NCBI GenBank assembly: GCA_973895155.1
Contig: OZ316895.1
Location: 16,188,816-16,252,815 of the forward strand
Reading direction: 5' to 3'
DNA length: 64,000 nucleotides
Source of the DNA: Marsupella aquatica
Taxonomy: Eukaryota > Plantae > Marchantiophyta
Below are positions 16,931-61,951 of this stretch, piece after piece. The position numbers and the translations under genes were made by a program. The notes beneath the pieces were generated by a model. It worked only from the letters and a program-made list of their open reading frames with translations. It ran no database searches and was not told where the DNA came from. Positions within the stretch are counted from its first letter, which is position 1. Each line of letters begins with the position of its first letter.

Positions 16931-16939
16931 ATATGAAAT

Positions 16940-17280
16940 TAAGAACCACTCTTGCGGCTCCCTAGCAATACTCTCTTGGCAATATACAAAAAGTCAGCAA
17001 AACTCAAAAGACAACAAGAACCGCTTTTGCAACTCCATAGCAATACTCTCTTGGCAATATACAAAAAGTCAGCAAAAATTGATAGGCATTAAGAACCACT
17101 TTTGCAGCTCCATAGAAATACTATTCTTGCAATATACAAAAAGTCAGCAAAAATCAAAAGGCATTAAGAACCACTCTTGTGACTTGCTAGCAATACTCTC
17201 CTTTCAAAATCAAAAGTCAGCAAAAAGCAAAAGGTATTAAAAAACACTCGTGTGACTTGATTGCAATACTCTACTTGTTA
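16940..17280. repeat. Minisatellite, ~75-bp unit x ~4.5
   Basis: aagaaccactcttg..agcaatactctcttggcaatatacaaaaagtcagcaaaa units start near 16941, 17016, 17091, 17167, 17241; a partial unit also at ~13690. Confidence 0.85.
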
Positions 17281-27471: not shown

Positions 27472-28947
27472 TCGCCACGCCCTCAATGCCCAGTTCCATT
27501 CTTCGTCTCCGCTGCGTTTACCGTGCACTCCTTTCTGTGCCTTTGCGTTGCGTTTGGGCGAGAGTTGGTGTTGTTTTTCTGGTGGCTTCCTTGGCTTCCT
27601 TTCGCTGCTTCGAATCCCTGCCCTTCATCGGTTCCTTGCTCTGCGGCAGAGGGGGAGAGAGGGACGCAGTGGTGGTTTCGAATCTGTGAATCTGTGAATC
27701 TGTTCGGGTTTCGGAGCACCACTAACGCACAACACACGAGAGAGCGAGAGCGAGAGAGTCTGTTTCCGAGAGTGGGAAGGAAGTCCCCGTGTTTGTTTGA
27801 ATCTGTGAAAAAATTGGTTGGGAGCAGCGAGCGGGGTGTCGTTACTGGCCAGCCTGTTTTTCTGGTTCTTGCCAGGAAGAGGAGGGGGCGGGGGTGGAAT
27901 TCGTGGTTGTGCTGGTGTGGGCGGTAGGAAGAGGGAGGAGAGAAATAGACACCCGTTCTCAGTTGTGTGGCGATGGAGAGCATGTGGAAGAGGAGTGGGA
28001 GATGAGGAGAGAGGAGCACGGCGTTGCTGAGTGATGTGACTGCATTTTCTCCATTCCATTATTGAATCGCCGTTCTGCTTCCAGTCGAGTGCGGTGAATG
28101 TTAGCGATCGCCATCCGTGCATTTTTATTCGAATGCACAGTGACGATCGGTTTTTTGTGTCTGTCGTGGAGGAAGAGGAGAGGTCAGGACTGGCTGGGTT
28201 GTGGAGTGGTTAAAAATAGCGCAGTCTGGGGGTCCGTCCAAATCTGCCAAAGCATGAGGAGAACGGTCTGAGAGGTTTCTACCTATTCGGAAGTCTCACG
28301 CGTACACGGGAGTGTGGCGGAAGAAGCCGCTGGATTTGGAAAATGAGATAGGCACCTTGCGGCCCTGGATTGAATGCGTGGCACTGTACCGCTGCCGAAG
28401 TCTTCCCTCCTGCCCTTAGGAAGATTTCTAACCTGGGACAAGCACTCGTTTCCCTCGCCCTCGACTGAGTCCAGCAGTTTGCGATAGTCTTCATTGCCAT
28501 GATGCCTCGTCTTCCCTTCAGTAGAAGCTCCAGCTATAGAGCCCCAAGGTAACGTCCGAGGCCGTCGTGCTAGAGCCAGTGACGTTCGCTTTCTTCGGTG
28601 CGATCTTACAGTTTCCAATTTCCGGACTCTTCGATTTTAGAAATATTGGGAACTAGCGTGGATTTCTCCTGCGCTCTCTCGCTTGTTCCGGTTCTTAGCC
28701 CGTGTCATCGTGTCGCTCACACTGCTGTCTCCCATTCTCCAAGTGACGTCCATCAGATTTGTTCATGCCCTCTCGCGTCCTTCCTGCGTTCTAGCTAATC
28801 CTCAGGACCATCCCTTCCCGCCAACACGGCGGATGTGAAATTTTCGATAGCAATTGTTGTAGAGACTGCCCCGCCTTGGAGTGCAACTACCAGGTTTCCT
28901 GGCAAAGGTCTTCTGAAGCGTCTTAAAGCGTAGATGTCTGAAAAGCC

Positions 28948-31545
28948 ATGAGGAGTGCGTACCCTAGCTCTCAGTCATTTTTCGATTCTACGTCCGATTC
29001 GATCAGAGCAGAAGACATTGAGAAATGCAGGAGTAGTGCCTCGTTCAGTTCATTGGCGGACTTGTTCACAAACCCTTCTAGTAAATCTGACTTGTTCCCG
29101 CACACTAGGGCTCCCGTTTCCGTAGCAGAGGAGGTTCGTTTTCCTGCGAAGAAGAAGAGAGAGTGTGAAGAGAGGACCTCCATTTGGCACGAGTGGGGCT
29201 CCGGAGAATGTCAAAGTGAGAATGTCGCTGAGGAAAGTTCAGGTTTCACGTCAAATTTGATCCGTGGTGGCAAATCTTCGATCTTGTGTCCGAGTTCGTT
29301 TCCGAACCTGGGATCTGCCAATATCAGCTTGTTGACCGAGGACTTCACGTTCCCTGCTCGTAAAAGACGAGAGGAGGGAAGTTCCTGGCGTGAGGAGAGG
29401 ACTTCGTGGCAGGACTGGAGCACAAGCGTAGCTCCCAAGAGAAGAGAGCAAACAAGGACGGGTAGCTCCCCTGTAGTTGGTTCAATTCAGGATATGTACC
29501 TGAGTAAGCCCTGCACCAAACCGTTGGATTTTGTTATCAGCTCTAAATCGAGCCCTTTCTCTAGTCTTGGGGCTCCCGTGAAGAGCGCCTCGGAAGAGGT
29601 CTCCTTTCCAGCCAGGAAAAAGAGGGAGGAGAGAAGCTTCTGGCAGGAGTCTAGCTTGGATGGTAGCACCCAACCGGATTGTGTAGTCGTTGCGCCTCCT
29701 CGGCAGAGCGCGCCCGGTGTGGGTTCACTTGCAGATATGTATAAGAGAAAAGCACCTAGCGGCTTATTCTCCAAGGGCGCTGTCAGCGGCTCGGAGGAGG
29801 TTATTTTTCCCAAAAGAAGGAATAACGCAGACAGAAATGCTTGGAGAGATTGGACAAACACTGGATACAGTGACTATGAGGATGGAGAGGACCAGGATGG
29901 CTTCCGCGAAGAGAATTCACCTAAGCCTATTATGGTGGTCGTTGGCACGGAGACTGGCTTGGCATGTCCAGCAGTGAATTCACCATGCAGCATTGAAGGC
30001 TCTAGCAGATTCTCAGTTAGTGAGAATTCGCCATTGTCTGAATGTATGAGCAGATCGTCTGTTCGCAAACCAGGCGGTGGTGCAGTGGGTGCATTGCAGT
30101 CATCGAGCATTCAAGTACAAGTTTGTGAAGAGGTGTCGGGTCCCATCAAAGGTCTGATGTGCAATGTGGATGAATCAGGACACGTCGATCATCAAGCTGA
30201 GAGAACCATGGACGGGGGAGAGGCCTCTGATGTTACTGACGACATTGGGGCTAACGTAGATCATGTGCAGGAGGGAAGCTTTCGATATTTTACGAGTGGA
30301 CAGAGGCGTGGTCGAAGTACTGGTAAGTACCCACCACCTCTACGGTCTCTCTCGAGACCGGGACAATCTCGAGTCCCTACTCACATGCCATGGGTTCAAC
30401 TCCAACCTATTCGAAGCAAAGGGAGATTCGTACTGCAAGAGGTGAAAGTAACCCAGCCCGTTGTTTTTCAGCCCATCAGGACGGGGGGCCGCTTGGTTTT
30501 GCAGCTGATCGGACAAGAGAAGAGCTTCCATATAGGAGATGAAGTAGCGAGACACCGTGGAAATGGTGCAGTCGCCGAGGCTAAAGTCACAGTTACCTCA
30601 GGAAAGGGAGGCTTGCAAGAATCGTTGACGGTGAAGACAGAGGTGAAGGTAGTAGAGAAGACAGACGTGAGTCAATCCCTCGACAACGTTAGAAGAGAAG
30701 GAAGTGAGAGAAGGAAGATTTCCAATGTACGATCAGCAGAGATTGAGCAAAGGAAGAAATCTGCAAAAGTTTGGCCAGTCGTAGGAACGTCCTGGGAAGC
30801 ACTACCGGGAGACGGGGTTGCGGCTGATATGTGGGACAGGAAGTCAAGTAATGTTCGGGAGTTGCGGTACATGACAGACGAGATGGTTGTGTCTTCTGAC
30901 CGATGCCCCGAGCGGGACAGAACCATCCCTTCCGAGGGCGGCCTTGCTCCAGATAGATCGTGGCTCCTTGGGAAGTTGTCCACCGAAAGTAGAACTTTTG
31001 ATGCGAGAAAGTCACTGCATTCCGGAAGTCAATTCCGGAATGCGGTGGATCGTTTGGGGCAAAAGGGAAATGTCATCTCGATTCCCAGAGTGAGAGAAAG
31101 TGCTCCTCTTCGTCTGCAGTTCCAAACGTTGCCTCGAGCCGCAAGCTTGCGGAATGGGCTATCTGGGCTCAACTGCCCGCGCGTTGAAGGAGGAGGTAAT
31201 TTGGGAAGGAGCAGCAAGAGCATCAAGAGTTCGTCGCTTGCTGATGCTGCCGCGATAGAGTCTGGAAAGGAAGAGAGGACTTCGGATCCCGTTCCAGCTC
31301 GAGCTCAGGAGTCGAGACCTTCGCTTTCCGTGTACCAAGGGATAATTCGGGACAGTTTTCTAAGTTTAGCTACTGCACATTCTTTCTTAAGGTCTCTGAG
31401 GACGAGGCCTGACATTCCCGGCGAGCTTGACCCGAGAGTGCCAAGCTGTAAACCTCCTGTTGCATCTGTGTTTTCTTGCGCTGATGGGGTGGGTACACTG
31501 CATCATGAAAAAAACTTTTGGGAGCAGCAGCCGTGCGTGTCATAA
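28948..31545 (+). CDS. FANTASTIC FOUR (FAF)-like protein, 865 aa, single coding exon
   Basis: Intact long ORF with an in-frame stop just upstream; FAF domain YPPPLRSL...R.KGRFVLQEV...FQPIRTGGRLVLQL (30328-30510); upstream VGTETG motif; C-terminal FW..PCVS. Confidence 0.85.
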   Translation: MRSAYPSSQSFFDSTSDSIRAEDIEKCRSSASFSSLADLFTNPSSKSDLFPHTRAPVSVAEEVRFPAKKKRECEERTSIWHEWGSGECQSENVAEESSGFTSNLIRGGKSSILCPSSFPNLGSANISLLTEDFTFPARKRREEGSSWREERTSWQDWSTSVAPKRREQTRTGSSPVVGSIQDMYLSKPCTKPLDFVISSKSSPFSSLGAPVKSASEEVSFPARKKREERSFWQESSLDGSTQPDCVVVAPPRQSAPGVGSLADMYKRKAPSGLFSKGAVSGSEEVIFPKRRNNADRNAWRDWTNTGYSDYEDGEDQDGFREENSPKPIMVVVGTETGLACPAVNSPCSIEGSSRFSVSENSPLSECMSRSSVRKPGGGAVGALQSSSIQVQVCEEVSGPIKGLMCNVDESGHVDHQAERTMDGGEASDVTDDIGANVDHVQEGSFRYFTSGQRRGRSTGKYPPPLRSLSRPGQSRVPTHMPWVQLQPIRSKGRFVLQEVKVTQPVVFQPIRTGGRLVLQLIGQEKSFHIGDEVARHRGNGAVAEAKVTVTSGKGGLQESLTVKTEVKVVEKTDVSQSLDNVRREGSERRKISNVRSAEIEQRKKSAKVWPVVGTSWEALPGDGVAADMWDRKSSNVRELRYMTDEMVVSSDRCPERDRTIPSEGGLAPDRSWLLGKLSTESRTFDARKSLHSGSQFRNAVDRLGQKGNVISIPRVRESAPLRLQFQTLPRAASLRNGLSGLNCPRVEGGGNLGRSSKSIKSSSLADAAAIESGKEERTSDPVPARAQESRPSLSVYQGIIRDSFLSLATAHSFLRSLRTRPDIPGELDPRVPSCKPPVASVFSCADGVGTLHHEKNFWEQQPCVS

Positions 31546-35519: not shown

Positions 35520-36178
35520 GGCACTCATCACAACCCCAATATTAGCGATGTTTTCTATCTCTAATGTACATTGTGCACTGAACATGTTCCAAGACACAAA
35601 AGCCCCGGGTAACCACTAATGCTGCCTGCATACAGTATCACTCTTCCCTTTCCAAAGAGGCACTCAACCCCCACCATTTTGTTATCTGGATTTAAAAGCA
35701 CAAGCCACCATAGTATAGTGCCAATGTCGACATCCACAATTCCAGTTCCACAGAGGTGGAGCATTCAGCACCCTCAATCTGGATATCATTTTGCCTCTGG
35801 ATCATACCCTGTTCAGGTCTAAAGAAACGAGCCTCCCCCTCCTGTTTGACCACCAGTTTTTCCAGACAATCAGGTCCGAATTCCCTTACGGAGTGGATGG
35901 AGTTTCCATATGGCATCAAACGCCTCAGGGACCCCTAGCAAGTAACACATTTCATTTGGGGTCCCATCAAGCAAATCACTCTCAAGGGCCCCCACATATG
36001 TACATTTGTTATCTGGATTGTGCCAAATGCAAGCTTTATTTTTTTAGTTTTCCTATCAAGTGGGGTTCTAAAGATACCAGCCCTCCATTCCATACCGATC
36101 TTGTCCTTGATCCTGTGTAGGCAAACAGTCCAACTCCTTTCACAACACAAATAACAATGATTTAGCTGATTGGGTCTC
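35520..36178 (-). mobile_element. Decayed L1-like LINE, 3' part; target of the Gypsy-type insertion
   Basis: GGL remnant (reverse complement of ccagccctccattc, ~36077-36090) lies downstream of the FWS..WHWLS motif found on the other side of the insertion. Confidence 0.35.
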
Positions 36179-37236
36179 TGTCATGCCGAGGGACAGTGCC
36201 TTTTGTGCACATCGGCATGTCCCTCGCATGCCCGCTAGGTATGTAGTTAGGGCTAGTGTACTACTTGAGTTAGTGTCATGTTCTTGTAGCGAGTCTGGGC
36301 TGTTCTTGAAGCAAAAGGGGTTTGTTAGTGTGGCGCCTGGACCTGGTCCTACTTAGGGCATGTTTTTCTTTATCGTTCTTCAGTTCTTCTTGAATCGCTG
36401 TTGACAGAGCTCAGACAGTGCTCGTCGGTTCCGTACACAGGATTCACACAGTGATTCGTTAGATGCTCCCGGCCGATCTTGGCATCCCGCCAGTTTTTGA
36501 TTCAATTTCAGTACGATTGTTTCTCTTACGCCTTTTATTCAAGAAGAACTGCCGAGTTGGCGGTGAGGGGAAGAAGATAGAAGACATTCTCGTCTCAGAT
36601 GTTTATGTCGGTTCAGACAATTTCCGTCGAAACCGGTGCAATTTCTTTGAGCAACAATGGAGGGACGAGTTGAAATTATGGGTTCAATATGGTGTTATGT
36701 GTATACTTAACATAAGTATACACATAACGCTCCCGTTGGAGCCTGACTTTTCTTCCCAGTTGTACCCGGGGACCCTTTGCTGCTTCCGACTGTGGCTGCT
36801 GACTGCCACTACCTTTTTCGGGCCAATTTTGCGATGTTTTTGCAGGAGGGGCTGTCTGCATAGGGCCACGAGCCCCTTCTTGGCTGCGCCTCCCTGCGCC
36901 ATGCTACCTTCCGGCCGGCTACAAGCCACGGGTTGCAGGTCGATGCCTTTACTCTTGCTCGGAGCCCTGTAAAGGGTCGCACGCCAGGTTTATTTTCGCC
37001 TCACGGCTGTGTTCGTACTGCGTCCTTCTCCCTCTGTGTATACACATCGGGGGCGACAACCTTCCCTTACCATTTTCTTTTCCTTCTGCTCACCGGTACG
37101 TGCATAGGGCATCGTGCCCTCCACTCGATTAGGACTCGTTTTCTTTCTTTCCCCTTTGCCGTTTTCTTTCCTTCCCCCCGGTTGCCAGCACTTAATAGGG
37201 GAGAGGGAGCGAGTACAAGCGAGAGCTGAGAGAGAG

Positions 37237-37700
37237 AGGGCACGAGGCCCTATGAAGAATTAAGGAGGGGAGGGGGAGTTCACGTCGACTCCCCTCGGGA
37301 GCCCTGCCAAGCACGAGGCCCAACTTACAGGGCATTAGAGGAGGGGAAGGGAAGCGCAAGGAGTGGGCACGAAGCCCTATGCTGACATAAAGAGGGGGAG
37401 GGGGAGTAATCATTCGACTCCCTCTCTCGGGAGTCATCCTGCAGGGCACAGAGCCCACTTTTAGCATTAAAGCAGGGGAGGGGGAATTCAATTAGACTCC
37501 CTTCTCTTGGGGGTAGGTTCACCTGTGGCCAGGCAGGAGCGCAAGGAGAGGGCACCCGGCCCTAGGCAGCATTAAGAGGGAGTCGATTCCTTTTGCCAGG
37601 CCCAAAACTCATTTAAGGAGGGGAGGGGGAGTTAGTCGCTCCCTTCTCTTCGGGAGCACATCAGGAGCCAGGAGGGGGGGCGTGAAGCCCTATGCAGGGC
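37237..37700 (+). repeat. Array of ~6 degenerate GC-rich units in the retroelement leader
   Basis: Recurring gggcac..gccc, then attaaggaggggagggggag, then gactccc..ggga. Confidence 0.75.
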
Positions 37701-38486
37701 CCGAGCCATTGATTGGGGCCCCATTTCTTTCCTTTCGCTGTGCCCTCGCCCTTTTCTTTTTCGCCTCGCTTCGCTTTCTCTTTTATTCACCTGCAGCAAA
37801 GCGCACGGTGCCCCCGAGTGTGTATACACACTCGTTCGGTTGCCGGTCCCCACCTGATTTTTCTTTTCGGTAGACGCGCACCTTCTGTCAGTTCCCGGGT
37901 CCACATCGGGGCCCAATGTATACACATAACTGGGCCCCATGTTTATACATTTGAAAAGGCCCAGGTATACACATGGGACGGCAATCCGACATCGCCTATG
38001 TATACACATAGGCAAGCACAACGGGGACACAATTTGAGGTTTTAAGGGTCCCTTTCCCTGATGGTTTTTCGACGGTGACGGGTTTTCTCAGTGCTTACAC
38101 ATTCTACACATTTTTGCCTCGCATTGTTTGTTTCCTTTGTGGGTTTCATTTCCTAGCCTTGGGGCTGCCATTTCTTTTTCTTGTCAGTTTCTTTCCCATC
38201 GGCACCCCAAGTGAGCATGCAGCATGTCAGCAGAGGAGCCGACTCATAGCAGCTCATCGCCACCAACACCCAGGTACCACTTGCGGAGTGATCCACGATC
38301 GTTGGTGCCAATTTCATTGGAGTCTCGGCAATTTCGATGACGTCAACAGACAGCAGCAGCACCCACACCACGCAATCCTTCTGCTACATTTGGCGGTCGC
38401 TTCACCTCTACCCGAAGCCTGCTATCACTTCTTTGCCTTTTTCTCCTTCTGCATCAGTGATTGTTCCAGCTTCACCGACATACAGC

Positions 38487-39835
38487 ATGGATGCCAGTCA
38501 CTCATCTAGCTGCATTGAGCGCTTCAGCGGGCGGCCAGGCACTGTCTCTTTACGTGAGTTCAAATCCACTTTCTACACTGTCGTTTATGAATTGGTGTTG
38601 AAGTATGGCAGCAATTTCACAAATGCTTTTGCATTTAAGTAGCTAGCCAGGTATGTGCACCATGAGGCTTTGGATGTGTATGAGCAGCACTCTCAACGGC
38701 TGCTTGCTGTCACACAGTTGCCTAACCCTACGTATGCCAGTGCAATTGCGGCGGCCTCACAATTGGCCTTACAGAATGCCATTGCAGCCCATGCTGCTGC
38801 TCCTGCCACTTCCCCTCCTACTCCAGTTCCTACCACTGCGCCAGTTACTCCCACTGTCTTGGCACAGGCTACATCAGGCATTTGTCCCACCATTGATTCC
38901 CCTGCCTTTGCTGATCCAATGGCTGAGTTTTTCCAGGTTCTTGAATTGGAATTCCCAATCAAGAGTGCTGATAAAATCATGCAGTTGGCCACCTTTGTGA
39001 GGCAGCGCGATGAAACATTGAAGATGATGTATCGCCGGCTTCTCAAGCTAAAGGAGGACACCCAGAGCATCACTGACCTGGAAGCTGCTCATCGCTATCT
39101 TTGCGCATTGGAGGGCACACCAGCTCTCCATTTTCAAGTGTTGTAGCAAGTATTCTCAGAGTTTGGAGACAACTACACCTTGCTCAATGTCTATGACACT
39201 GCTGAGAAACTTGAGTTGGCCCATGCACATTATGAGGCCAGTATTGCGCGTCCACCGCGATCCAGGTACCAAGCTACTGCCCCTACACTGGCCACTCCTT
39301 CCCGTGTGCCACAGTATGGTTCCAAGATCAAGCCAGCACATGCTGCTTCATGCTGCCATCTTGCAACTACTGTGGTAACCCTAATCACAAGGCTAATGAA
39401 TATGATATTGTTGTTGAGGACCTGTCTTGTGATTTTTGCGGGAAAGTGGGCCACTTGGAGGCAGTTTGTTTTGCCAAATTCCCCGATAAAAAGCAGCTAC
39501 GACAGCAGGCCACTCATCCTGCTCCTGTTTCCACTCCCCCACCAGCTAGGAGGGCTCCTACTGCATCAATTGCTCCTCCTTCCAGTGGCAAAGCATCCAG
39601 TCATAACAAATTGCCCAAGCAGCAACAGAAGCAACCAGCTCAGAAGGACGCTCACAACGCACAGGCAACTCAACTCCAGTCTCTGACTCATGAGGTTGAG
39701 TCATTACGTGCCCAACTTGCCAACATCAAAGGCAAGTCCACTGCCTCTCCTAGTCCTTCTCAACCGGCTGGTCACGTGCAACCCATCCCTAGCCTAGGCA
39801 CCACTGACAGTTCATCACCCATACCCGCTCTTTCT
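38487..39835 (+). pseudogene. gag: Retroelement gag, disrupted
   Basis: MDASH..IERFSG..; in-frame TAG at 38640 and 39144; frameshift ~39345; zinc knuckles CNYCGNPNHKANEY (last Cys lost) and CDFCGKVGHLEAVC. Confidence 0.8.
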
Positions 39836-40629
39836 ATGGCTTGCCATTTGATGCTCATATGGGTGAGTGTGTGCTGTCCTCTGCTACACAGCCTGGCCGT
39901 ACAGCAGAATTTTCAGATTCATTCTGCCCTTCCTATTTTGCTTACCAGCAGGCCAGTGCTGCCTCCCGTATTGCTCCCACACGCCGCATTGTACAGGCTG
40001 ATGGTCTTGCTGCTGGTCCTATGACTAGAGCCAGGGGAGCTCGGGCTGTCATGCCCCAATCTTTTCAGCCACTCACACTTGCTGAAGAGCGCACCTTGTT
40101 GGCGAGGGGCGAGGGAGCTGTAGCTACATCCATTCCACCACCAGGTGCTGCTGACATTTCACAGGGAGTTGTTTTTCCTGAGCTGCTTGAGCATTTCACC
40201 TTCGGTATGGCACAAAGGATTCTTACCACTCCACTTTTCAGTTGCCATGATTTACAGTTGGATGCTAGAGCTGTCATCAGAGCGCTAGAGGGCTCACTGC
40301 ATTCTTCATCAGCCCCTGTGACACCGGTTTTGGAGGTCCAATCTCATGTACATCCTGGACCTTCTTCTTCTCCATTACATGCTTCCACTGGTTTGGCTAT
40401 CCCAGTACCGATTTCTAGTGGTAGAGATGACAGTATTGCTGCAGATTGTGTGACCAGAGCTACACTTGATTCTGGTCATGCTGCTCCATCTTTCTTGGCT
40501 ATGCTGTTGAGTGGGAAGACCGTGGACACTAACTCCCTTCACAAGGTACCTCATCATTTGCCAAAAGTGGTGCCTAGTGACAGGACTTTAGTTTCCACCA
40601 CCATTGCCATTGTTGACAACAGGAATTCA

Positions 40630-40980
40630 GCAGTCAAGTTGGAGGGTCACACTCCTCAGGTGGTCATGCTAGACACAAGCGCTCAACCAGTAATCTTGGG
40701 CATTCAGTTTGCCAAGAAGATGGGACTGCTGACTGATCATTTACAGCAATCCAGGTGGCACATTCGGACTGCTAGTGGCACTATGAAGGATGTGTTGGGT
40801 GAGAGTTCTACTTTACTCACTCTCACTTTTAATGGAGGTACAGATCAGGAACTGCATTTCCCAGTCAGATGTTTGGTTACCAATGCCACTACGTATGATG
40901 TGCTCATTGGCCAAGAGGCTTTGTTCCCACCAGGTTTTACCATTAACAACTGGCATGAGCATGCATACTACAGAGTTGAT
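40630..40980 (+). pseudogene. Retroviral-type aspartic protease domain
   Basis: VMLDTSAQ (Asp codon 40672; DTG reads DTS), IRTASG flap, YDVLIG. Confidence 0.8.
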
Positions 40981-41337
40981 TGGCATACGGATGGCTCACA
41001 CTTGGGATACATTCCACTTGATTTGCATGGTGCCCATACCCCTATGGCTCACCACTGTGTGTTGAAAGCAGTGCACACAGCTACCTATGTCAACCACCCA
41101 TTGCAGGATTGGATTGAGGAGGATGATGATGAGGTGGCTACTGCACATGCTGCTGCACGTATAGCAGCCCTTTCCAGCAACGTGGATCATCAACCAGAGG
41201 TGGTACAACGGCTCCAAGCAGCCCATGGACCTTTGGTGGCTGCATTGCACAAATTTGAGGACCTTGGGCAGCACAATGGACAACCAATAGCCCCAATCTT
41301 GAGCGCACCAGTTACATGGACTCCTCCTTCAGATGGC

Positions 41338-42275
41338 CTTACATTGCTTGAGCTTTTTGGTGGCATTTCTACAGGCCTGGAAGCTCTCCTAAAGTCTGGC
41401 ATGGTGGTGAAGCAGTACATCTATGTGGATATTGATCCAGGTGCAAGGCAAGTGGCTGAATCCCGTCTGCTGGAATTTTCAGAGCGATTTCCCCAACAGT
41501 TTCCGCATAGTGCATGGACGTCTGCATTTTCTTTCTTCCCTCCAGATATCCAGCTTGTCCAGCACCGGCACTTAACCCTTCTTGGCTCCCTTGATTTGAT
41601 CATAGCTGGTTGGGAATGCCAAGGGTTTTCAGCTGCTGGTCACGGTGCTGGACTGCATGATTCTCGTTCTGGCCTTTTCACAGCATTGGTTCAAATTCTC
41701 ACCTGGGCTCAATCCCTTTATCCTGCTATTGGTTATATCATTGAGAATACTCCATCTCAGTTTGACCAGCGTCCACAGGTCAAAGAGGATTTCAGTGTGG
41801 TCCAGCACTACTTGGGACCACCCCTTCTCATTGATGCAGTGCACTGTGGTTCTTATGCACATCGTCTTCGTAACTTTTGGACTAACCTTGCACCACCTTC
41901 CTTGCTGGAGATGGCTCTTCACCACACATCCAGGGACACTAACCTCACAGTGGACCAGATTTTGGATGCTGACAGTCCTTGCGAACCAGTTACACGGCAA
42001 GAGCCAACACCTTGGTATCCAGCCAATACCATTGGACAACCCCGTGCTGCTTGGCCTACATTTGTGTCCTTTCCAGGTGCACATGCTTTTTAGGGTGATG
42101 GTCCTGGTCTGGTTTATCGACATTCTACCGGTACATGGGATGAACCTAGTCCTGAGGAGAGAGAACGGGCTATGGGCTTCCAACCCGGTACTACAGGTCA
42201 CACCAAAATCACCAGGCTGGCCAGGAATGCTTTACTTGGCAGGGTAATGGATCTCAATGCTCTCACTTGGCTTAT
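41338..42275 (+). pseudogene. C5 cytosine DNA methyltransferase domain, DNMT3-like, inside Pol
   Basis: Motif I LELFGGISTG; II YIYVDID; III DI; IV DLIIAGWECQGFSAAG (Cys 41617); VI IIENT; VIII AHRLRNFWTNL; after one TAG (42091) in the same frame, IX EERERAMGF and X TRLARNALLGR. Confidence 0.92.
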
Positions 42276-42629
42276 GGTCACTTGCATCCTTTTTCAGGTG
42301 TCCATTCCTCCAGCATTAGGAGCTCCAGCCCTACCACTCCACAGTGTTGTTGCATGGCATCCAGACCAGGTGCACTTACCTCTGTCCAACACTCACCACT
42401 TCAGTCCAAGTGTTGGGGGGGAGGAGGTCCCTTGTAATGCGGCTGACATTATTTCTGAGTTTCATGGTGTGGACCACTTCAGATCAGCAGGTACAACAGG
42501 CCTTGGAGAGGCCTCATCACCTTATCAGCAGCATGCTAGCAGCTTGGACAGTGGAGAGGCTGGCACTTCTGGCTCTTCAAGCACGAGTACATCAGGTCCT
42601 ATTCCTAGTGTTGCCAACTACACATTTAT

Positions 42630-44040
42630 CATGGGCAACCACCTGAGTAAAAGACAGAAGGACCAACTGCTGAATTTTCTCCTCAAGCATGAGAATGTGT
42701 TTGCTTTCTCTATGAAGGACTTGGGTAAGTGCAAGACTATGCAGTTCTCCATTGAGTTGGTTGATGAAACACCTATCTTCAGGCGGAGACACCGTTTGAG
42801 TAAGCATGAGTGGCAGCTGGTGGATGAGAGGTGCCAAGAGCTCTATGAAGCTGGTCTTATTCAGCCATCTACATCAGATTTTGCAGCAGCTACAGTGATG
42901 CCAGCAAAGAAGGATTCCAGTGGATTGTGGACAGAGAAGCGCATGTGTGGGGACTACAGGCCATTGAACCTGGTCACACCCCATGACAGGTACCCCATGC
43001 CGCGGCCAGAGGAGCTATTTGACAGTATTGGAGACTCAGACATCTTCACTCTTGTGGATCTAAGGCAAGGCTTCAACCAGATTTTGCTGCTTGCAAAGGA
43101 TCGCAAGAAAACATCTTTCCATGGTAGTAACCAACTATGGGAGTGGTTGGTGATGCCATTTGGCTTGAAGAATGCGCCCATATTCTTTCAAAGAGTCATG
43201 GACCAGGTTCTTCAAGGTGCTGAGTTTCTGAAATGCTACATTGATGATGTGTTGGTCCACAGCAAAGGATTTGACCAGCATCTACTTGACCTTGAGGAGC
43301 TATTCATGAGGCTTAAGAAGGTGAACCTAAAGATACAGCCCAAGAAGTGTGAATTTGCTGTCAGATCAGTAGTATACCTTGGGCACCGCATTCTTCCAAA
43401 TGGAACCATGGCTCACTGGGCCAAGGTGGCATCCATCTTGGAAATGCCCACTCCTACCGACGTTCACACTTTGAGGAGCTTTATTGGGTTGTGCAATTAC
43501 TACCGGATCTACATCAAAGATTTTAGTACCATTGCACACCCATTGTACTCTTTGTTGAAAAACAATGTGCCTTGGACATGGAGTACAGATGCTGAGGCAA
43601 CATTTGCCACTTTGAAGGAGAAGCTCTCAAAATACCCAATGCTAAGAAGACCTGATTTCAGCAAGGTCTTTGTGCTACACACAGATTGGAGTGCCCTTGG
43701 GATTGGTGCCATTCTGGGCCAGCATGATGAGGAAGGTAAAGAGTATGTCATTGCCTATGCATCCAGGAGCAACAATCAGGCAGAGAGTCATTATTCTTCT
43801 TATGAGGGTGAATGCCTTGCTGTTGTGTGGGCTATCATACATTACAGGCCCTACCTCTATGGGACCAGGTTTGTTCTCTACACCGACCACCAGCCCTTGA
43901 AGTGGTTGATGACCAATGACAAGCTTACTGGCAAGCTTGCTCGTTGGGCGCTCATACTCCAGGAGTATGATTTTGAGGTAATTCATAGGCCTGGTGTGAC
44001 ACATCAAAATGCTGACACTATGTCCTGCAGCCCTTTGATT
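42630..44040 (+). pseudogene. pol: Reverse transcriptase + RNase H (Ty3/Gypsy)
   Basis: RMCGDYRPLN, DLRQGFNQ, VMPFGLKNAP, YIDD (43237-43248), YLGH, FIGLCNYYR; RNase H LHTDWS, YEGECLA, TDHQPL, NADTMS. Confidence 0.97.
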
Positions 44041-44294
44041 GCCTCTGATGATCCCTCAGATGCACGGTAGGATTTTGACCAGGTTTCCATCCTGCCTACA
44101 TTTCATGCATCTACCTATCTTGCTTTGTTGCCATGCTACATTGTTGACCAACCTGTGGTGGACATATGGGAGAACAACGACACTCTGAGATTTTTGCAGG
44201 ATGGGGAGTACCCCACCCATGTTACTGCTGCCCAGAGAGACCGAATTCAGCAAAGGTCCAAGCGCTACTTGTGAAAGGGAGATTATCTTGTGCC

Positions 44295-45400
44295 GCTGCT
44301 TGCCAGACAGGGAAGTGGTGGTTCCACCCATTCATGAGAGGGTTGGCCTTATCCGTAAGGTACATTCTAAGCTTGGTCATTTTGGTGTTAAGAGGACTTA
44401 TAGCCTCTTGGTCCCCCATTATCATTGGAGAGGCATGCATGGCTAGGTTCGAGATGTTATTGCCCGGTGTGAGCAATGTGATAGGGTAAGGACTTCTTTC
44501 ACATCTCGGCAACCCACACTTCATCCACTCCCTATTCAGGGCATGTTTTATCGTTGGTCATGTGATTTGGCTGGAGAATTACCCCTCACATCTCGGGGTA
44601 ATCTCTACATCATGATCATGATAGAGCATTTCTCCAAGTGGATAGAACTTGTGGCATTGCCAGATAAGACCTCCCGTAGCACCAGCCAGGCATTCTTGCA
44701 ACAAGTTCTCAGCCGCTTTGGAGCTTGTGCATAATGTCTCACTGACCAGGGCTCAGAGTTTAGAGGAGAGTTCCAGGAGCTGCTTGATCAGGCTCTCATT
44801 GATCATCGCCGGACATCACGAGATCACCCACAGGCAAATGGCTTGGCAGAGCGCATGGTTCAGACATGCAAGAAGGGCCTTCGGAAGATCTGCCTCACCA
44901 AAAACAAGGAGGATTGGGACCTGGCCTTACCCTACATTGCCATGGGGTATAGGATGTCCAGACATGCATCATTGTCTAACTTTTCTCCCTACTTCTTGTT
45001 GTTTGGTCGTCACCCAGTTCCACCTTCTGCTATTGCTTCTCACATGCTTCAGGTGGTGGACTTGGATTCAGCTGTGACTTGGTCTGATGTGATCTCTGAG
45101 AGGGCTGCCCTATTCAGGAGGGTTATGCCCATGGCCATGGAGAATTTGGCCATTGCACAGCTCAGGGACACACTGCGTTATGCACACACACGAGGGGGCA
45201 CTTTTCAGCCCAAGGTCAGGAAGTTTGAAGTGGGAGATTTTGTGTACTTGCAGCGGCAAGCTAACGACACCCTGGACACCTCTACCAGTCGCACTATTCT
45301 CAGGGTCAAAGCTATTCGACCGTTTGGAGTGCTAGAGTTACAAGGGGCAGATGGGCGCACAATTGCTGACAATGCCAAGAATTGCGCCCCTTGTCATCTG
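44295..45400 (+). pseudogene. DDE integrase, disrupted
   Basis: HSKLGH...CEQC zinc finger; WSCDLAG, TDQGSEF, NGLAERMV catalytic triad; FEVGDFVYL; stops at 44444 and 44732; frameshift ~44292. Confidence 0.95.
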
Positions 45401-45457
45401 CCTAACCTGGATCCCACCATTGTGACTTCTACTTGGATTCCACCTGTGGACTACCCT

Positions 45458-45592
45458 TGCAAAGTGTGTTTGCGAATTGATGATGCTTACCAGATGCCGC
45501 TGTGTGACAATTGCAATGGAGGGTACCATCTTTTCTGCCTTCGGCCTGAACTTCCCCAGGTGCCAGAAGGGTTATGGTTTTGCCCTTCCTGT
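45458..45592 (+). other. PHD finger fused to the integrase C-terminus
   Basis: C4-H-C3 pattern: CKVC..LCDNCNGGYHLFCLRPELPQVPEGLWFCPSC; ORF stop at 45610. Confidence 0.92.
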
Positions 45593-45825
45593 GCTCCACG
45601 TGCTATCTGACTTTTCTTCAGCCCTCCTTTTGGCTGTGGTCTGGGGGGGATACAGAGGTTTACACCTCCACTACGTACATACCACCTCAGTTGCTTTTTC
45701 TTGGCACTTGTGAATGTGATTGAACTTTTTCTATGCATGTTGGTTGCTAGCAGCTTGCACATATGCATTGCCGGTGACTTGTATGTTTTCGATACACTAT
45801 GGCTACGATACTATATGTCACGACA

Positions 45826-46560
45826 TCTCCCACTTAGCCAATGCCACTGCTTTTTGCTCAGACTGCTCCAGAAATGTTTTGCACCAACCCAAAATTTTGC
45901 AACCATCCAAGCCTCCTAAACCCTGCCAAAAGCCCATTCAAAATGTCAGTAGGAAGAACTCAGCTGCCAACCAAAGAGAATAAGTTGAAGGTCATCTTGA
46001 CCGCTAAAGCCTGAGACTAAAATTAAGGCGCTGCAATTTAAAGTAAATTGTCTCAGTCCATAAGAATGAAACAGAGCAGCTGGTTAATCTCGAGGAGGGA
46101 TTATCCAAATTGCCGAAAGAATCATGGAGGGAAGAACTGGGTAAACCAAGTGCAAGTGAAGTTTTCAGCACCTTAATAATTTTTTCTCAAGGATATTGAA
46201 TGCAGATCAATCAAGCTACCATATTTGAGGCATTGGACCACATGAGAGAACTGAAAAATTTAGAGACAGTTTGCAAATTGAGAAAAATATGAAATTCCTG
46301 TGCTTAAACAACAAATATTTGTAAATTGATAGTTGGAGATGCTAGTAGACAAATGAAGACCTTAAACAACTCTTGCCTCAATGCCTCGATGTTGAATACC
46401 AACCTAAACACTAAACACTTGCTTGGGGAAACAAATCCAGAGGAATGCCCGAAGTGTGAAAGACCACACAAGCCAAGTGAACAACAGAAGCAAACCAAGG
46501 CCATCCCAAAGATACAAGACACGGCTAAGAATCCAACTGACAAGTGTATGCTAAATTCAA
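45826..46560 (-). mobile_element. Decayed L1-like LINE, upstream part of the element split by the Gypsy-type insertion
   Basis: Minus strand reads LGLP (~46140-46155) and FWSSLSKKQWHWLS (~45833-45875), typical post-RT L1 motifs. Confidence 0.4.
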
Positions 46561-47888: not shown

Positions 47889-48770
47889 GGCCATGCCTCG
47901 ATACATTGTTGTAAGTGCCACTCTCTCTGCATGACAGCAAAGAAACCACGCATTTTGGCTCTTGGTTTGAGTTTAGTTTGCCCAAGTTAGGGCCATAGTT
48001 GAGTTGGTATTCTAGCTTGCAAGATGAACTGGGTCTTCTTGAAGCAAAGCCGTTGTTAAGGGCACCTTTGGCATCATCCTCTATTTAGGTCTGACTGGGC
48101 CCATTGTCACTTAGTTTTCTTGAATTATTGTTGAGGCATAGCTCGCCACTTGGTAGATGGATTTTTAGACAGTGATTTGTTGGATACTCTCTTACATTCC
48201 AATTTTAGTACTCATTTTCTTCTATGGCCCTGCGTTTGCCCATTTGCATCCTTTGTGCCTTCGTCACCCACAACCATGGCCATCCCCTTTGGGCTTTTAG
48301 TATGTTTAGTGGCCTCCTGCACTTCCTCCACAAGTTTCTGTTTGTTTCTAGCCGTGACAACACCTGCAGGTTTTCATCCATTTTCAGGCCTGTAGCTCCT
48401 CCTTTTCCTGCACTTTCCAGCTGTGCACATATATGCACTTTGGGGACAGTCAACAACGTGATGGGCCTTTTCTGGTCCATATTTTTCACAAGGAAATAAG
48501 GGCTGAGCACTGTTTGCCTCACTTTACTCAACCTTTTTGGCTCTCGCACCTGTGTACACGAAGCAATGGGGCCATTTTTATGCCTGTCCCCATGTTTTGT
48601 AGGATGTCTCAACATGCATCATTATCTAGTTCCTCTACTTAGGTTTGGCTATTTGGGTAGGCACCCACTTCTACCTTCTCCTATAGCCGTCCATCATTAT
48701 CTAGTTCCTCTCCTTAGGTTTGGCTATTTGGGTAGGCACCCACTTCTACCTTCTTCTAGCCGTCGTGACT
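47889..48770 (+). mobile_element. Old, internally deleted relative of the 36179 element
   Basis: 5' part matches the family 5' end (catgcc, ttcttgaagcaaa, ttttcttgaat, acagtgatt.gtt.gat.ctc); 48590-48690 matches integrase 44940-45037; local ~72-bp tandem duplication at 48618-48762. Confidence 0.65.
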
Positions 48771-49362
48771 AATAATAGAACCTAGCCAGTATATCAAAGT
48801 CATGTAACTCATCAGTAGTCAACTTGCACACAATCTCACTGAAAACTTACATACTAGCATAAATAGGTGTGTTGAGCCAGGTGTCACATGATACACCAAA
48901 AAAGTAAATATATGCAATCTATATAACTAGAGAAAGCTAGATTTGGGGTTAGGCTTTTAGAGTGACTACTCTAGAGGGTGACTGTAGGGCCCCGCCAAAC
49001 CAAAATTTATGTGGATAGAAAGAAGGATGAGATGTTATGTATGTGTAAATAATATTAGTTGTCCCAGCATGAGTGACCAGTGGTAGCAGTCTTCATTGCC
49101 GAGTGCGATTATGAGTTTAAGTTTTATAAGTATATTTTGCATAAACAGCCATCCCAAAGTTCAACAAAGCCTTTTGCCCACAAAGTACTTTACACTTAAA
49201 TTAATGTGTATCAACCAAATGGAGATGGGCAGGCCCAAGGGTTTATAAGTGGGTTCCAGGAACTAAAGCGAATACTCAGAAAATCTCACCAAGTATAGTG
49301 AATATTTTTGTTTTCTGTCACACCAATGCTTTTTGAAGGTTTGTGCATAAATTCAAAGAGCT

Positions 49363-49713
49363 GATGCTGTCTCGTTAAGGAAGTAGCTTGAAATTGATAC
49401 CAGAGTCATAGCTCACATTATTCTGGGTTGTGATACTCGCTCGTTAATGCTAAAGCTTGAACTTGATACTAAAGTCACACCAAATATTATTATGGGTTGT
49501 GATGCTGTTCCGTTGATGTTAAAGCTTGAAATTGATACCAGAGTCACACCAAACATTACGGGTACTCTGGGGTGTGGTCCTGGCTCGTTAATGCTACAGT
49601 TTGGAAGTTGGAACTGATACCAGAGTCACACCAAATATCATTCTCGGTTGTGCATAAACTCGAAGAGCTGATACTGGCTCTTCAATTAATGCTAAAGCTT
49701 GAACTTGATACCA
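49363..49713. repeat. Minisatellite, ~68-bp degenerate unit x ~5
   Basis: Recurring cgttaatgctaaagcttgaa.ttgataccagagtcacaccaaa.att. Confidence 0.8.
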
Positions 49714-50483
49714 GCCAATCAGTTAACCTCGCCCTCTGCAGCTCAGCAGCTGAACTTAGCGATCAATGACCGTTTTGTAATAACCACACAGTATCAACAA
49801 ATAAGTACACTGAATCAACATGAGCTGGTCTAGCTTGCAAGCGTGCGGCCAGGTACAGGACAGCATTGAGTCCAGTACTGGCACTGATACTGGACTGTAC
49901 TTTACTGTACTTTGTCCGAGTGAATGACTGAAGAACTCAACATCTTGGAGTCTACCTAAATCTCTGGTACAGCACAAGAGAGCGAAAGTGAGGTCACTGT
50001 GTTAAGGGTACGTACGGCCGTAGGAACCTGTCATGGATCTCTCATCTCTCTCTCTTCCTTCGTGCAGTACAGTGCATTGTAATAATTAATGGGTACAGGC
50101 TTCCCATTTGACCTGCTCCTCTGTTGTTCTCCGTGATCAATCTTCGCAATCCACTTTTAAAAAATGCTGGGAAAAATGCTGGATCTACATTGTACTAATT
50201 GATGGGTACAGGGCTACAGGCTTCCCATTTGACCTGCTCCTGTGTTGTTCTGCGTGACCAATCTTTGCAAATTGCAATCCAATTTTTAAAACATGGTGAA
50301 TCTATTGAATGGTGGCAATAATTATTATGGTAACTGGGGTCTGGTCACTTCTGCAGAGTTCTGCCCTGTCCCCGCTGGAAACTGTAGGGCACTCTGCGCC
50401 CAATTCTAGGACTGCATTGTTGTGGTTGGACCCTTTGCTTAGTTCTGCAGCAGCCAGCATGATAGGAAATCATGCCCAAAAGC

Positions 50484-52464: not shown

Positions 52465-52795
52465 TGTTGAACTAAGATGTCATTCGCAACGACCATACAA
52501 CCATGACTCATTCCATGCACACGTAGTCGACAAAATCTCTACGTGGTTCACCTCTTCTCCAAGGCTACGTCCACACGAACACTCAAGCTTTACTTCAAGA
52601 GTAGACGAACACACATTCCTCCCTCTTCCTCAAGTTTCTCCGTTACAATGAGTAAGCATCACATACTAGTGGCTTACACTAGCCCTGGTATATACAAGGT
52701 CACACACGACTAACCTAACCTCAGCTAAGACCCTAACTGTGGTTAGCCTAAGTGCCGTAATCTTTGAGTCACAAGACTAAGAGCAATCCTTAACA
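52465..52795 (-). mobile_element. Solo LTR (Copia-like), 5-bp TSD AATAC
   Basis: aatac|tgttgaac...ccttaaca|aatac; reverse complement aligns end to end with 53572-53901. Confidence 0.88.
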
Positions 52796-53404
52796 AATAC
52801 ACCCTGTGAAAGCCATCAGCCATATCTATGAAGCATTGAGACTCCCTATTGTTACCAGGTAGACCAAACTCAATTCTAGGCTAATCACGAGCATGCCCAC
52901 TCCCAACCGTAGTGTTGAAATAAATATTATACTAAGTAGGCAAACTAGGAACCAGACATTAACCAAGCGAGAGATCAATCCAGTAGGGCAAGCATGTGCA
53001 AAGGTGCCCACTGCCTGACCATAGTATTGAAATGAACATTATACTAGGCATGATAGGAACCAAAGGGTAACCAAAGCATGGATCAATGAGAGACCAATCA
53101 AATAGGCAAGCGGGTGTAAAGGTTGAATCCTTCTAAAGACTTTACTTCATCCCACCCAAAAGTGGGTTCACAAAAATTTTAGACACTTAGAAAACATGAC
53201 CATAGTTTATGCATCAGACAAAGGGGCAACCTGGAATGAGTGCTTAGGGCTCATTAAAGCCTTTGACCTGAATAAATTTCATATGGAAGTTAGTAAATTT
53301 GGTGGGCACATGTGTAGCCAGGGGTACTGCCTTATGCTTAAATCCTATACAATTTTGGTATTCTGTTTGATAGTATAAACAAAGCATAGTGTGTCAGGCA
53401 TCTA

Positions 53405-53936
53405 CCAAGAAAAGACTTAACAGGATCTCTCTAGCATCTCTTGGACTTAACAGTCCAGCAAGATGCCATGAAGACTTAATAGGACTCCTTAACAGGACCT
53501 CTATGACTGCCAATCTTGCCCAGGTCTTGATGGCATTTTACTCACAAGGGTCCGGTTAAGTCCAAAAGATGTGTTAAGGATTCCTCTTAGTCCTGTGACT
53601 CATAGGTTATGGCGTTTAGGCTAACCACAGTTAAGGACTTAGCTGAGGTTAGGTTAGTCGTGTATGACCTTGCATATACTAGAGCTAGTGTAAGTCGTTG
53701 GTAGGTGGTGCTTGCTCATTGTAACGGAGCAACTTGAGGAAGAGAGAGAGCTTTGTGTGCGACTATTCTGAAGTAAAGTTGTTGTGTTCATGTGGACGTA
53801 GCCTTGGAGAAGAGGTGAACCACGTATGGATTGTGTCGACTACATGAGCATGGTATGAGTCATGATCGTATCGTCATGAAGGAAGACGTCATAGTTCAAC
53901 AAGATGCCAGAGGGGTCTTGTTAAGTCTTTTCTTGG
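53405..53936. mobile_element. MITE (family of 1749-1875) interrupted by a solo LTR
   Basis: ccaagaaaagacttaacagga ... tcttgttaagtcttttcttgg; internal sequence is the reverse complement of 1790-1860. Confidence 0.75.
53572..53901 (+). mobile_element. Solo LTR (Copia-like), 5-bp TSD AGATG
   Basis: agatg|tgttaagg...gttcaaca|agatg; motif gtggacgtagcc..ggtgaaccacgta. Confidence 0.9.
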
Positions 53937-60599: not shown

Positions 60600-61951
60600 T
60601 GTCATGCCTAGGTACATGGCTGTCGGTTCTGCTCGCCATGGTCCTCGCATGACTGCCAAGCCTTTGGTACCATTATGTTTTTGTCGGCTTATAATTTGGG
60701 TTTTGTTTTCCCAAGTTATGGCCCAATTAGGGCCATGGTTGACTTTATGTTCTTGTAGGGCAAGTATGGGTGTTCTTCAAGCAAAGCCATTTTTAAAAGA
60801 CACCTTTTTGCTTCATCTGTTGTAGTTGACATTTTGTTCTTGTGGTGCGTTTTTGTGTTCTTTGAAGCAAAGTCATTTTGCTTCATTCACTACTTAGGTA
60901 GAGTCTTGCTCACTTGTTAGCTAGTTTTTCTTGAATTATTCTCGAGAAAGTGTGAGCAATTCAGATAGCTCTCCATTCCATACAGGGAATTAGACGTTGA
61001 TTTGTTAGATGCTCCAGATTGATCTGGCATCCTGTCTGTTTTCATTTCATTGTCGGTTAGTTAAGTACACCCGTTTCTATGACGCATTTTTATTCAAGAA
61101 AAACTTGATGGCTTCCATGGGGTATAGGATGTCTTAGCATGCATCATTGTCTAATTTTTCTTCCTACTTTTTGCTGTTAGGTAGGCACCCAATTCCACCT
61201 TGTGCTATTGTGCCTCCATGCTTGCGATGGTGGATTTGGACTCAATGGTAACCTGGTCTGATGTGATCTCTGAATGGGTTGCTCTATTCAAGAGGGTTAC
61301 GCCGATGGCCATGGAGAATTTGGCCATATCACAACATAGGGAGACACTCCGGTTTGCACACACCGGTGTGGGCAATTTTCAGCCCAAGGTGAGAAAGTTT
61401 GAAGTAGGGAATTTTGTTTATTTGCAGCGGCAGCCCAATGACACCTTGGATACTTCTACTAGTCCTACCTTTCTCAGGGTTAAGTCCATTTGGCCACCCG
61501 GAGTGCTACAGTTACAAGGGGTAGATGGGCACACAATTTCTGATAATGCTAAGAATTGTGTTCCTCGTCACTTGCCTAACCTTGATCCCACTATTGTGAC
61601 TTCAACTTGGATTCCACCTGTGTAAGGTGTGTTTGTGCATTGACGATGCTGATCAGATGTTACTGTGTGATGATTGCAATAGTGGCTACGTACCATCTCT
61701 TCTGCCTCCGGCCTGAATTGACACAAGTACCAGAAAACTTATGGTTTTGCCCTCCATGTTCACCACTTGCAACTTGATTTGCTTCAGATCTCTTAATCTT
61801 TCTTGGCTATGGTCTGGGAGGATATAGAGGTTTACACCTCCACTACGTACATACCATCTCATTGTTTGAGTACATTTGCAACATGTTTCATGTTTTTGAG
61901 TTTTATGAACTTAATGGTTTTGTCACATGTTTACAATGTTTATGTCACAAC
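60600..61951 (+). mobile_element. Non-autonomous deletion derivative of the DNMT/PHD Gypsy-type family (5' end + integrase C-terminus + PHD + 3' end)
   Basis: Starts TGTCATGCC; 60600-61105 is homologous to 36179-36551; 61115-61860 is homologous to 44940-45690; ends tatgtcacaac, matching 45814-45824. Confidence 0.85.

Follow-up and report, generated by a model that had tools for sequence, protein, structure and literature searches.

Retrotransposons that keep cytosine methyltransferases of their own do so for reasons that are still open, and in the published account the single Gypsy enzyme put to the test showed no activity. The 64-kb stretch of Marsupella aquatica DNA analysed here (the window) contains a 9.65-kb Ty3/Gypsy element that carries a DNMT3-like methyltransferase (DNMT) domain and, at the end of its integrase, a PHD finger. 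Do finger and enzyme work as a coupled reader-writer pair, or does the finger serve the integrase while the enzyme acts apart from it?

The element is arranged in the order gag-protease-DNMT3-like-RT-RNaseH-integrase-PHD and has the PR-RT-RH-IN order of a Gypsy Pol with a DDE integrase (Table 1). The gag-like region is broken by stops at 38640 and 39144 and a frameshift near 39346, the DNMT3-like domain is interrupted by a stop at 42091, stops at 44068 and 44272 and a frameshift near 44293 lie upstream of the integrase, and the integrase itself has stops at 44444 and 44732. In all, seven stops in frame and three frameshifts (near 39346, 39823 and 44293) render the window copy dead; its coding part is depleted in CpG (observed/expected (o/e) 0.27). 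The family is present in four public sequencing runs from three organisms, and in run X3 element contigs reach a depth of 1,200-1,500 compared to 19-21 for flank contigs, which indicates many similar copies but is not a measured copy number.

Table 1. Coordinates of the element, its parts and its further copies in the window
Feature	Positions	Strand	Details and evidence
Target-site duplication TCTC, left copy, 4-bp	36175..36178	+	
Whole element, decayed Gypsy-DNMT3 retrotransposon, A-internal-B form	36179..45825	+	Ends TGTC...GACA; depth falls to flank level outside; joints at both ends
Terminal repeat A	36179..36538	+	Recurs between B1 and B2 in full-form family members; joints 36538->45650 and 45825->36178 in runs X1-X3
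GC-rich degenerate tandem repeats in 5' leader	37234..37700	+	Variable among copies
Gag-like region	38466..39750	+	Zinc knuckles 39362-39388 (degenerate) and 39428-39469 (CCHC); gagA/gagZ profiles match 21/20 relatives
Aspartic protease	40615..40962	+	Catalytic DTS at 40672
DNMT3-like C5 methyltransferase	41320..42297 (approx.)	+	Motif I 41353; catalytic Cys in WECQ 41611-41622; ENT 41743; RxR 41863
Reverse transcriptase (RT)	42760..43407	+	YIDD at 43237
RNase H	43654..43977	+	
Integrase	44327..45415	+	HHCC zinc domain; D-D35-E core (44564, 44744, 44849); beta-barrel C-terminal domain; CxxCH 45383
C4HC3 PHD finger	45458..45592	+	Last domain of Pol, stop 45608-45610; Pfam, PDB matches, predicted fold
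G7 run, polypurine-tract-like, directly 5' of B	45643..45649	+	
Terminal repeat B	45650..45825	+	
Target-site duplication TCTC, right copy, 4-bp	45826..45829	+	
Third fragment, short, from integrase region	48590..48758	+	Tandemly duplicated
Second copy with an internal deletion; holds A, the C-terminal part of the integrase, a frameshifted PHD (61621-61759) and B	60600..61951	+	Probable TSD with one mismatch, read by eye

The finger comprises 45 residues with all eight zinc ligands, matches the Pfam PHD profile at 38.1 bits (cut-off 24; E 1.6e-9) and is read in frame with the C-terminal half of the integrase in a stop-free ORF (44735-45610). Its C4-H-C3 ligands, a Trp before Cys7 and a predicted cross-braced fold (pLDDT 88-96 in blocks 231-280) are those of a PHD, confirming the original prediction that such a finger takes, at the end of the integrase, the position of the chromovirus chromodomain. 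DYP just before Cys1 (45449-45457) and G-Y before the zinc-ligand His are both read in the window as claimed, and the decayed finger foreseen in the second copy was found with two frameshifts: a 4-nt insertion shifts the frame and an 11-nt deletion removes DYP. Between the integrase beta-barrel and the PHD lies a conserved CxxCH motif (45383-45397), a possible extra metal site. The closest PDB sequence matches of the finger are CHD4, WSTF, ATXR5, KDM5D, Lid, BAZ2B, EHD3 and KDM5A, with E-values of 2e-14 to 4e-10 for WSTF to ORC1b. The closest fold to the predicted model is ATXR5 bound to H3 (0.7 Å over 46 columns, 56% identity); the UHRF1 PHD superposes at 0.8 Å and BAZ2A at 1.3-1.8 Å. No ADD domain occurs among the best 60 of 64 PDB matches, nor among the fold matches listed. 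Comparison of the window with Sphagnum-type loci (52 loci; pN 0.17, pS saturated at 0.98) points to purifying selection on the PHD.

The DNMT3-like domain was likewise borne out, by a Pfam DNA_methylase match (25.9 bits) and by PDB searches in which the 17 best matches by E-value were all DNMT3A or DNMT3C, the best solved relative being DNMT3A (E 1.5e-7). It is intronless within the Gypsy Pol. Across 125 family DNMT domains the catalytic residues are kept (Cys in 120, the EN residues in 122/121 and the RxR residues in 121/120), and motif IV reads E-C in 77, as in the window, and P-C in 42. A dN/dS of 0.13 between the window and Sphagnum-type loci (22 loci) indicates purifying selection here also. 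The DNMT of the Klebsormidium Gypsy element showed no activity in yeast, a result that its authors termed inconclusive (PMC5890265). In one further protein (P0223) a family DNMT on a long branch is fused to a cellular-type RNase H (PF00075) and not to Gypsy domains, perhaps representing another element class.

Searches with the integrase-PHD and DNMT sequences as queries yielded 186 and 108 protein matches, 224 distinct proteins in all, with named members in Klebsormidium, Closterium, Marchantia, Sphagnum, Volvox, Pleodorina, Tetrabaena, Haematococcus, Monoraphidium and Chromochloris; Sphagnum proteins are the nearest named relatives of the window element, and no relatives were found in viral contigs. 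A PHD is present in 117 of the best 120 of the 186 integrase relatives, always directly after the integrase C-terminal domain. The original prediction had proposed examining DNMT/PHD co-occurrence across related elements, and we found the PHD in 102 of the 111 DNMT-bearing proteins that reach the integrase C-terminal domain, from chlorophytes to bryophytes; with both queries taken from the window, this count under-represents distant relatives that have the PHD or the DNMT alone. Two of the other nine end at that domain and seven bear another tail. At the level of loci, 21 of 23 with enough upstream DNA contain DNMT sequence, and the remaining two also lack RT. Joint possession of PHD and DNMT3 goes far back in a large green-plant family that has been described in part, and the window element, itself dead, adds one more member of the Gypsy-DNMT3 kind already described in Klebsormidium.

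The position of the DNMT within this family is not fixed. It precedes the RT in the window and in Marchantia, Closterium and Sphagnum-type proteins (a streptophyte-type clade), and lies between RNase H and integrase in Volvox, Pleodorina, Haematococcus, Monoraphidium and Chromochloris types; in this chlorophyte layout it stands directly before the integrase in 93 proteins, 76 of them with a PHD. Unrooted FastTree phylogenies, built without outgroups or reference chromovirus sequences, separate the two layouts both for the integrase (181 sequences, support 0.898) and for the DNMT (125 sequences, support 0.991; the Klebsormidium DNMT sequence was not included). In Marchantia and others the DNMT ends an ORF separate from integrase-PHD, and 14 proteins have protease and DNMT without RT or integrase, 11 of them being gag-protease-DNMT ORFs. 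Such relatives may produce the DNMT together with gag and in larger amounts than integrase-PHD. Proteins with gag, protease and DNMT but no RT include P0128, P0135, P0142, P0146, P0148 (Marchantia), P0126, P0127, P0129, P0131 and P0138.

Several side observations concern the ends of these proteins. Three of them (P0163, P0177, P0194) have no PHD and carry an unannotated 395-residue tail after the integrase, and in many proteins of the chlorophyte layout the PHD is followed by 100-400 residues that bear no annotation. A Chromo match follows the PHD in 2 of the 17 relatives scanned (P0193 1495-1544; P0189 1893-1921), one of them above the cut-off; both are of the chlorophyte layout and hold DNMT, PHD and chromodomain match in one Pol. 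The direct DNMT-integrase-PHD joins of P0013 and P0034 were taken as gene models that probably skip a decayed RT and not as real fusions, and the idea, drawn from gene model P0013, of a truncated PHD in Sphagnum-type copies was rejected.

These layouts bear on a coupled reader-writer, in which the PHD would read H3K4me0 and recruit or allosterically activate the DNMT3, so that the integration complex methylates the new copy or its target. Frequent co-occurrence, purifying selection on both domains and the contiguity of DNMT, integrase and PHD in the chlorophyte layout would all suit such a mechanism, and ATXR5 is a finger of the same class able to regulate a methyltransferase (PMC5499861). Since the DNMT3s of plants and algae have no ADD (PMC12344493), any coupling would be convergent. 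We nevertheless consider coupling unlikely. RT and RNase H lie between the two domains in the window layout, the DNMT ends another ORF in Marchantia and others, and the best 60 of the 64 PDB matches of the finger included no ADD. The seven DNMT-bearing proteins that have another tail in place of the PHD retain motifs I, IV, VI and VIII and fall in at least two lineages of the integrase tree. Conversely, three chlorophyte-type proteins (P0058, P0070, P0063) retain the PHD but show no DNMT in the interval from RNase H to integrase, although a DNMT further upstream is possible in these; 38 RT-RH-IN-PHD proteins were not scored as DNMT-less, as some start inside the DNMT end (e.g. P0010) and the search covered proteins of up to 2000 residues.

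What would the finger read? We counted residues in the 155 complete PHDs among the 178 detected in the family. The K4me3-cage Trp two before the His occurs in none of them (Gly in the window). The R2-binding Asp after Cys3 occurs in 147 and the P-x-G-x-W motif of the A1 pocket in 129, and the window has both; the second R2 Asp, after Cys4, is found in 23 (Asn in the window), an acidic wall at -5/-6 of Cys3 in 85 (Tyr/Ala) and Asp or Glu three before Cys1 in 89 (Asp). In both ATXR5 (PMC5499861) and KDM5A PHD1 (10.1101/715474), A1 lies in a P-x-G-x-W pocket and R2 on Asp residues after Cys3 and Cys4; the acidic wall is that of PMC5415848. Judged by these residues, the finger is of the KDM5-PHD1/BAZ2/ATXR5 class without a K4me3 cage; binding of the H3 tip without such a cage has good support from the sequence, and strict K4me0 selectivity is plausible. 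At two groove positions the window has Tyr and Pro, compared to Asp and Leu in 37 and 53 of 53-54 related loci, and the window copy may therefore itself bind poorly.

The proposed assignment to readers of unmethylated H3K4 thus held for the kinship and the missing cage, and less well for the acidic residue before Cys1, whose variability weakens the case for strict K4me0 reading. Consistent with this, the finger could instead recognize the free end of H3 through A1 and R2, discriminate little at K4 or prefer K4me1, and act as a general nucleosome anchor, not as a device for targeting heterochromatin. Strong conservation is confined to the A1/R2 residues, with K4-side acidics in about half of the 155 fingers, and among the closest folds is the UHRF1 PHD. 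The latter tolerates the K4 state. EHD3, a rice-type tandem PHD that is a top match and a close solved relative, was crystallised with H3K4me1, so the A1/R2 pocket, while conserved, is not by itself selective for K4me0. The title of a cited reference presents the UHRF1 PHD as an R2 reader, and KDM5A PHD1 is reported merely to prefer lower K4 methylation. However, ATXR5, the closest fold, excludes methylated K4 by backbone carbonyls and needs no acidic side chain (PMC5499861), so K4me0 selectivity is compatible with variable acidic residues, and we regard a general anchor as quite unlikely.

A finger without any role at histones, one that binds DNA or another partner or stabilises the integrase C-terminus together with CxxCH, appears very improbable. 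The CxxCH motif stands just upstream of the PHD in 110 of the 155 family proteins, and the second R2-binding Asp is mostly absent. BAZ1-type fingers offer a precedent in binding a non-histone partner. However, the histone-groove residues are conserved in chlorophyte and streptophyte elements alike, and CxxCH persists in PHD-less relatives and hence does not depend on the finger.

Together these observations lead us to favor, with a probability of roughly 0.6, a reading in which the PHD tethers the integrase to nucleosomes through an H3 tip without K4me3 and the DNMT3-like domain is a separate product. Domain order, boundaries, the 4-bp target-site duplication (TSD), conservation of the A1/R2-pocket residues across the family, the missing K4me3 cage and purifying selection on both domains are observed, whereas histone binding itself is an inference. 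The PHD would hold the H3 tip by A1 and R2 where K4 is not trimethylated and, placed on the integrase like the chromodomain of chromoviruses, would steer insertion away from H3K4me3 promoters. The DNMT would be freed from Pol by the element's protease or translated with gag and, as de Mendoza et al. hypothesized, could methylate the new cDNA or the new insertion. The finger remains at the integrase in each layout while the DNMT moves, and is thus best read as an integrase tether; the two DNMT positions, its separate ORF and the intact DNMTs of PHD-less lineages argue against a built-in regulator like ADD. Although the co-occurrence fits coupling as well as descent, the pairing would in this reading be inherited from a clade ancestor with both domains, and accounting for it requires no allosteric link of the ADD type. 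The original prediction of a rebuilt ADD and DNMT3 logic is therefore not upheld for the window element, where the domains lie ~1,050 codons apart, separated by RT, RNase H and integrase; the analogy may still hold in the sense of "works like", mainly in the chlorophyte layout.

We also examined the insertion site, which had been proposed to be a LINE fossil. This was not confirmed, as LINE homology was not detected in the flanks by Pfam on all six frames of both sides, by tblastx and nhmmer against related loci and the window, by a motif scan, by one frame against PDB, or by searching proteins with a single left-flank frame on the minus strand. Short L1-like motifs on the minus strand, judged by eye, hint at a LINE, and a heavily frameshifted fossil could escape such searches; even if real, a LINE target would be one site and would say nothing of preference. 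The immediate flanks are CpG-poor (o/e 0.40 and 0.24), with CpG-rich DNA (o/e 0.90) ~1 kb away and a gene 4.6 kb from the insertion, a setting that weighs against the favored reading. Related insertions gave no CpG signal, 3' flanks having an o/e of 0.29 (42 loci) compared to 0.31 at 5-6 kb (26 loci). A precedent for an insertion bias is a PHD-bearing element of Chlamydomonas, Gypsy-7a_cRei, for which intergenic insertion has been reported 2.6 times more often than expected by chance (PMC9940879).

Elsewhere in the window, an intronless 866-codon ORF (28942-31545, plus strand) encodes a Fantastic Four (FAF) domain (58 bits), a sign of a land-plant host, together with internal FPARK(K)RR repeats, and 52465-53901 is bounded by ~330-bp terminal inverted repeats, 84% alike, resembling a MITE or DNA transposon, with related pieces at 1751-1863. 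There are short tandem arrays at 16914-17277 (75-bp units), 49341-49714 (69-bp units) and 48617-48764 (75-bp units), the last built from the element's integrase sequence.

The termini of the element are unusual in that split direct repeats stand in place of LTRs. Repeat comparison revealed no LTR pair in the window element or related loci, and the search for a tRNA primer site gave no conserved TGG right after A in 10 loci; tRNA and Rfam scans had no match. The full form of the family is A-internal-B-A-B (L020, with repeats at 1388-1694 and 10928-11588, L046, L058 and L059; joints in runs X1-X3). In a survey of 80 related loci, 54 of them non-redundant, B continues into A in 25 of the 54 and 21 end after one B; none of the 10 loci that have A at the 5' end begins with A-B-A. 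Where both ends were available, in nine loci, the TSDs are of 4 bp, 8 of them perfect, and the ends read TGTC..GACA; ten TSDs had no common motif. The inner B|A junction is GACA-NN-TGTC, with GC, GT, AC or AT as spacer, and at the A|B junction the end of A is joined to the base after the G-run. The GACA-NN-TGTC sequence suggests integration at an internal, circle-junction-like site. A more elaborate possibility is a green-plant-wide Gypsy lineage with a full kit, in which integration at such a junction in place of LTR ends, docking of the PHD on K4-unmethylated H3 and methylation of the new copy at the insertion by the DNMT3 (tethered in the chlorophyte layout) would act together, which we hold to be rather doubtful.

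Compared with canonical LTR retrotransposons, the family shares TG..CA ends and a 4-bp TSD but lacks an LTR pair and a TGG primer site. Its repeats fit the DIRS-like repeats that, together with Gypsy domains, are ascribed to the Klebsormidium element KnitGypsy-Dnmt3 in a figure legend of de Mendoza et al. 2018 (PMC5890265), the legend being our basis of comparison. Beyond it, we found no split repeats with a DDE integrase in the literature covered, to which figures, subscription papers, Repbase and bioRxiv supplements did not belong. KnitGypsy-Dnmt3, of the group named Gypsy-DNMT3 in a preprint (10.64898/2026.05.21.726589), also shares with the window element an intronless DNMT3-like domain in a Gypsy Pol, catalytic residues and purifying selection (PMC5890265), and Klebsormidium nitens proteins match the window query (P0006, with PHD, and P0074) within the same integrase clade (support 0.898). 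The window family differs in occurring in a land plant, in having relatives in chlorophytes and in its second DNMT position. The term PHD is absent from the text and three supplements of that paper (PMC5890265), whose Fig. 4c and Supplementary Figs 13-14 may show the domain.

A PHD as accessory domain of a green-lineage Gypsy element is known from REM1 and Gypsy-7a_cRei of Chlamydomonas, where it was proposed to reduce harmful insertions (PMC6673714, PMC9940879, PMC8557442, PMC2774666); we liken these by description, REM1 being described as a chromovirus with a truncated, reversed integrase, and the available text on them mentions no DNMT. EpiLTRs also combine a histone reader and a cytosine methyltransferase in one LTR-type element, but with a chromodomain, a DNMT4-related DNMT and an adenine methyltransferase, and are of independent origin (10.64898/2026.05.21.726589). 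Gypsy-DNMT3 (2018), PHD-bearing retrotransposons (described as "many") and reader-plus-DNMT LTR elements have thus been published already. A pairing of PHD with DNMT3, occurrence in chlorophytes and a DNMT in two positions were not found in the literature covered, where figures and some supplements may show them. The family offers natural comparisons in its two DNMT positions, PHD-loss lineages and seeming DNMT-loss lineages, with members in the laboratory organisms Marchantia, Volvox and Klebsormidium. A PHD-guided insertion bias, if shown, would be the first for an integrase-borne PHD in the literature covered.

Chromoviruses likewise carry a chromatin reader at the integrase C-terminus, assumed to direct integration (PMC6317226), whereas the reader in the window is a PHD, its protein has no Chromo match and the element has no LTR pair. 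The fingers of ATXR5, KDM5 PHD1, BAZ2A/B, WSTF, UHRF1 and ORC1b share sequence, fold, R2-binding Asp and A1 pocket with the window PHD, which differs in having Asn as the second R2 residue and, across its family, a variable acidic wall. The ADD of animal DNMT3A/B consists of a GATA-like finger and an atypical, all-Cys PHD. With that module the window element shares a DNMT3-type catalytic domain and a finger class for K4-unmethylated H3 tails, but its single C4HC3 finger sits on the integrase, far from a DNMT whose position is not fixed and from which it has been separately lost.
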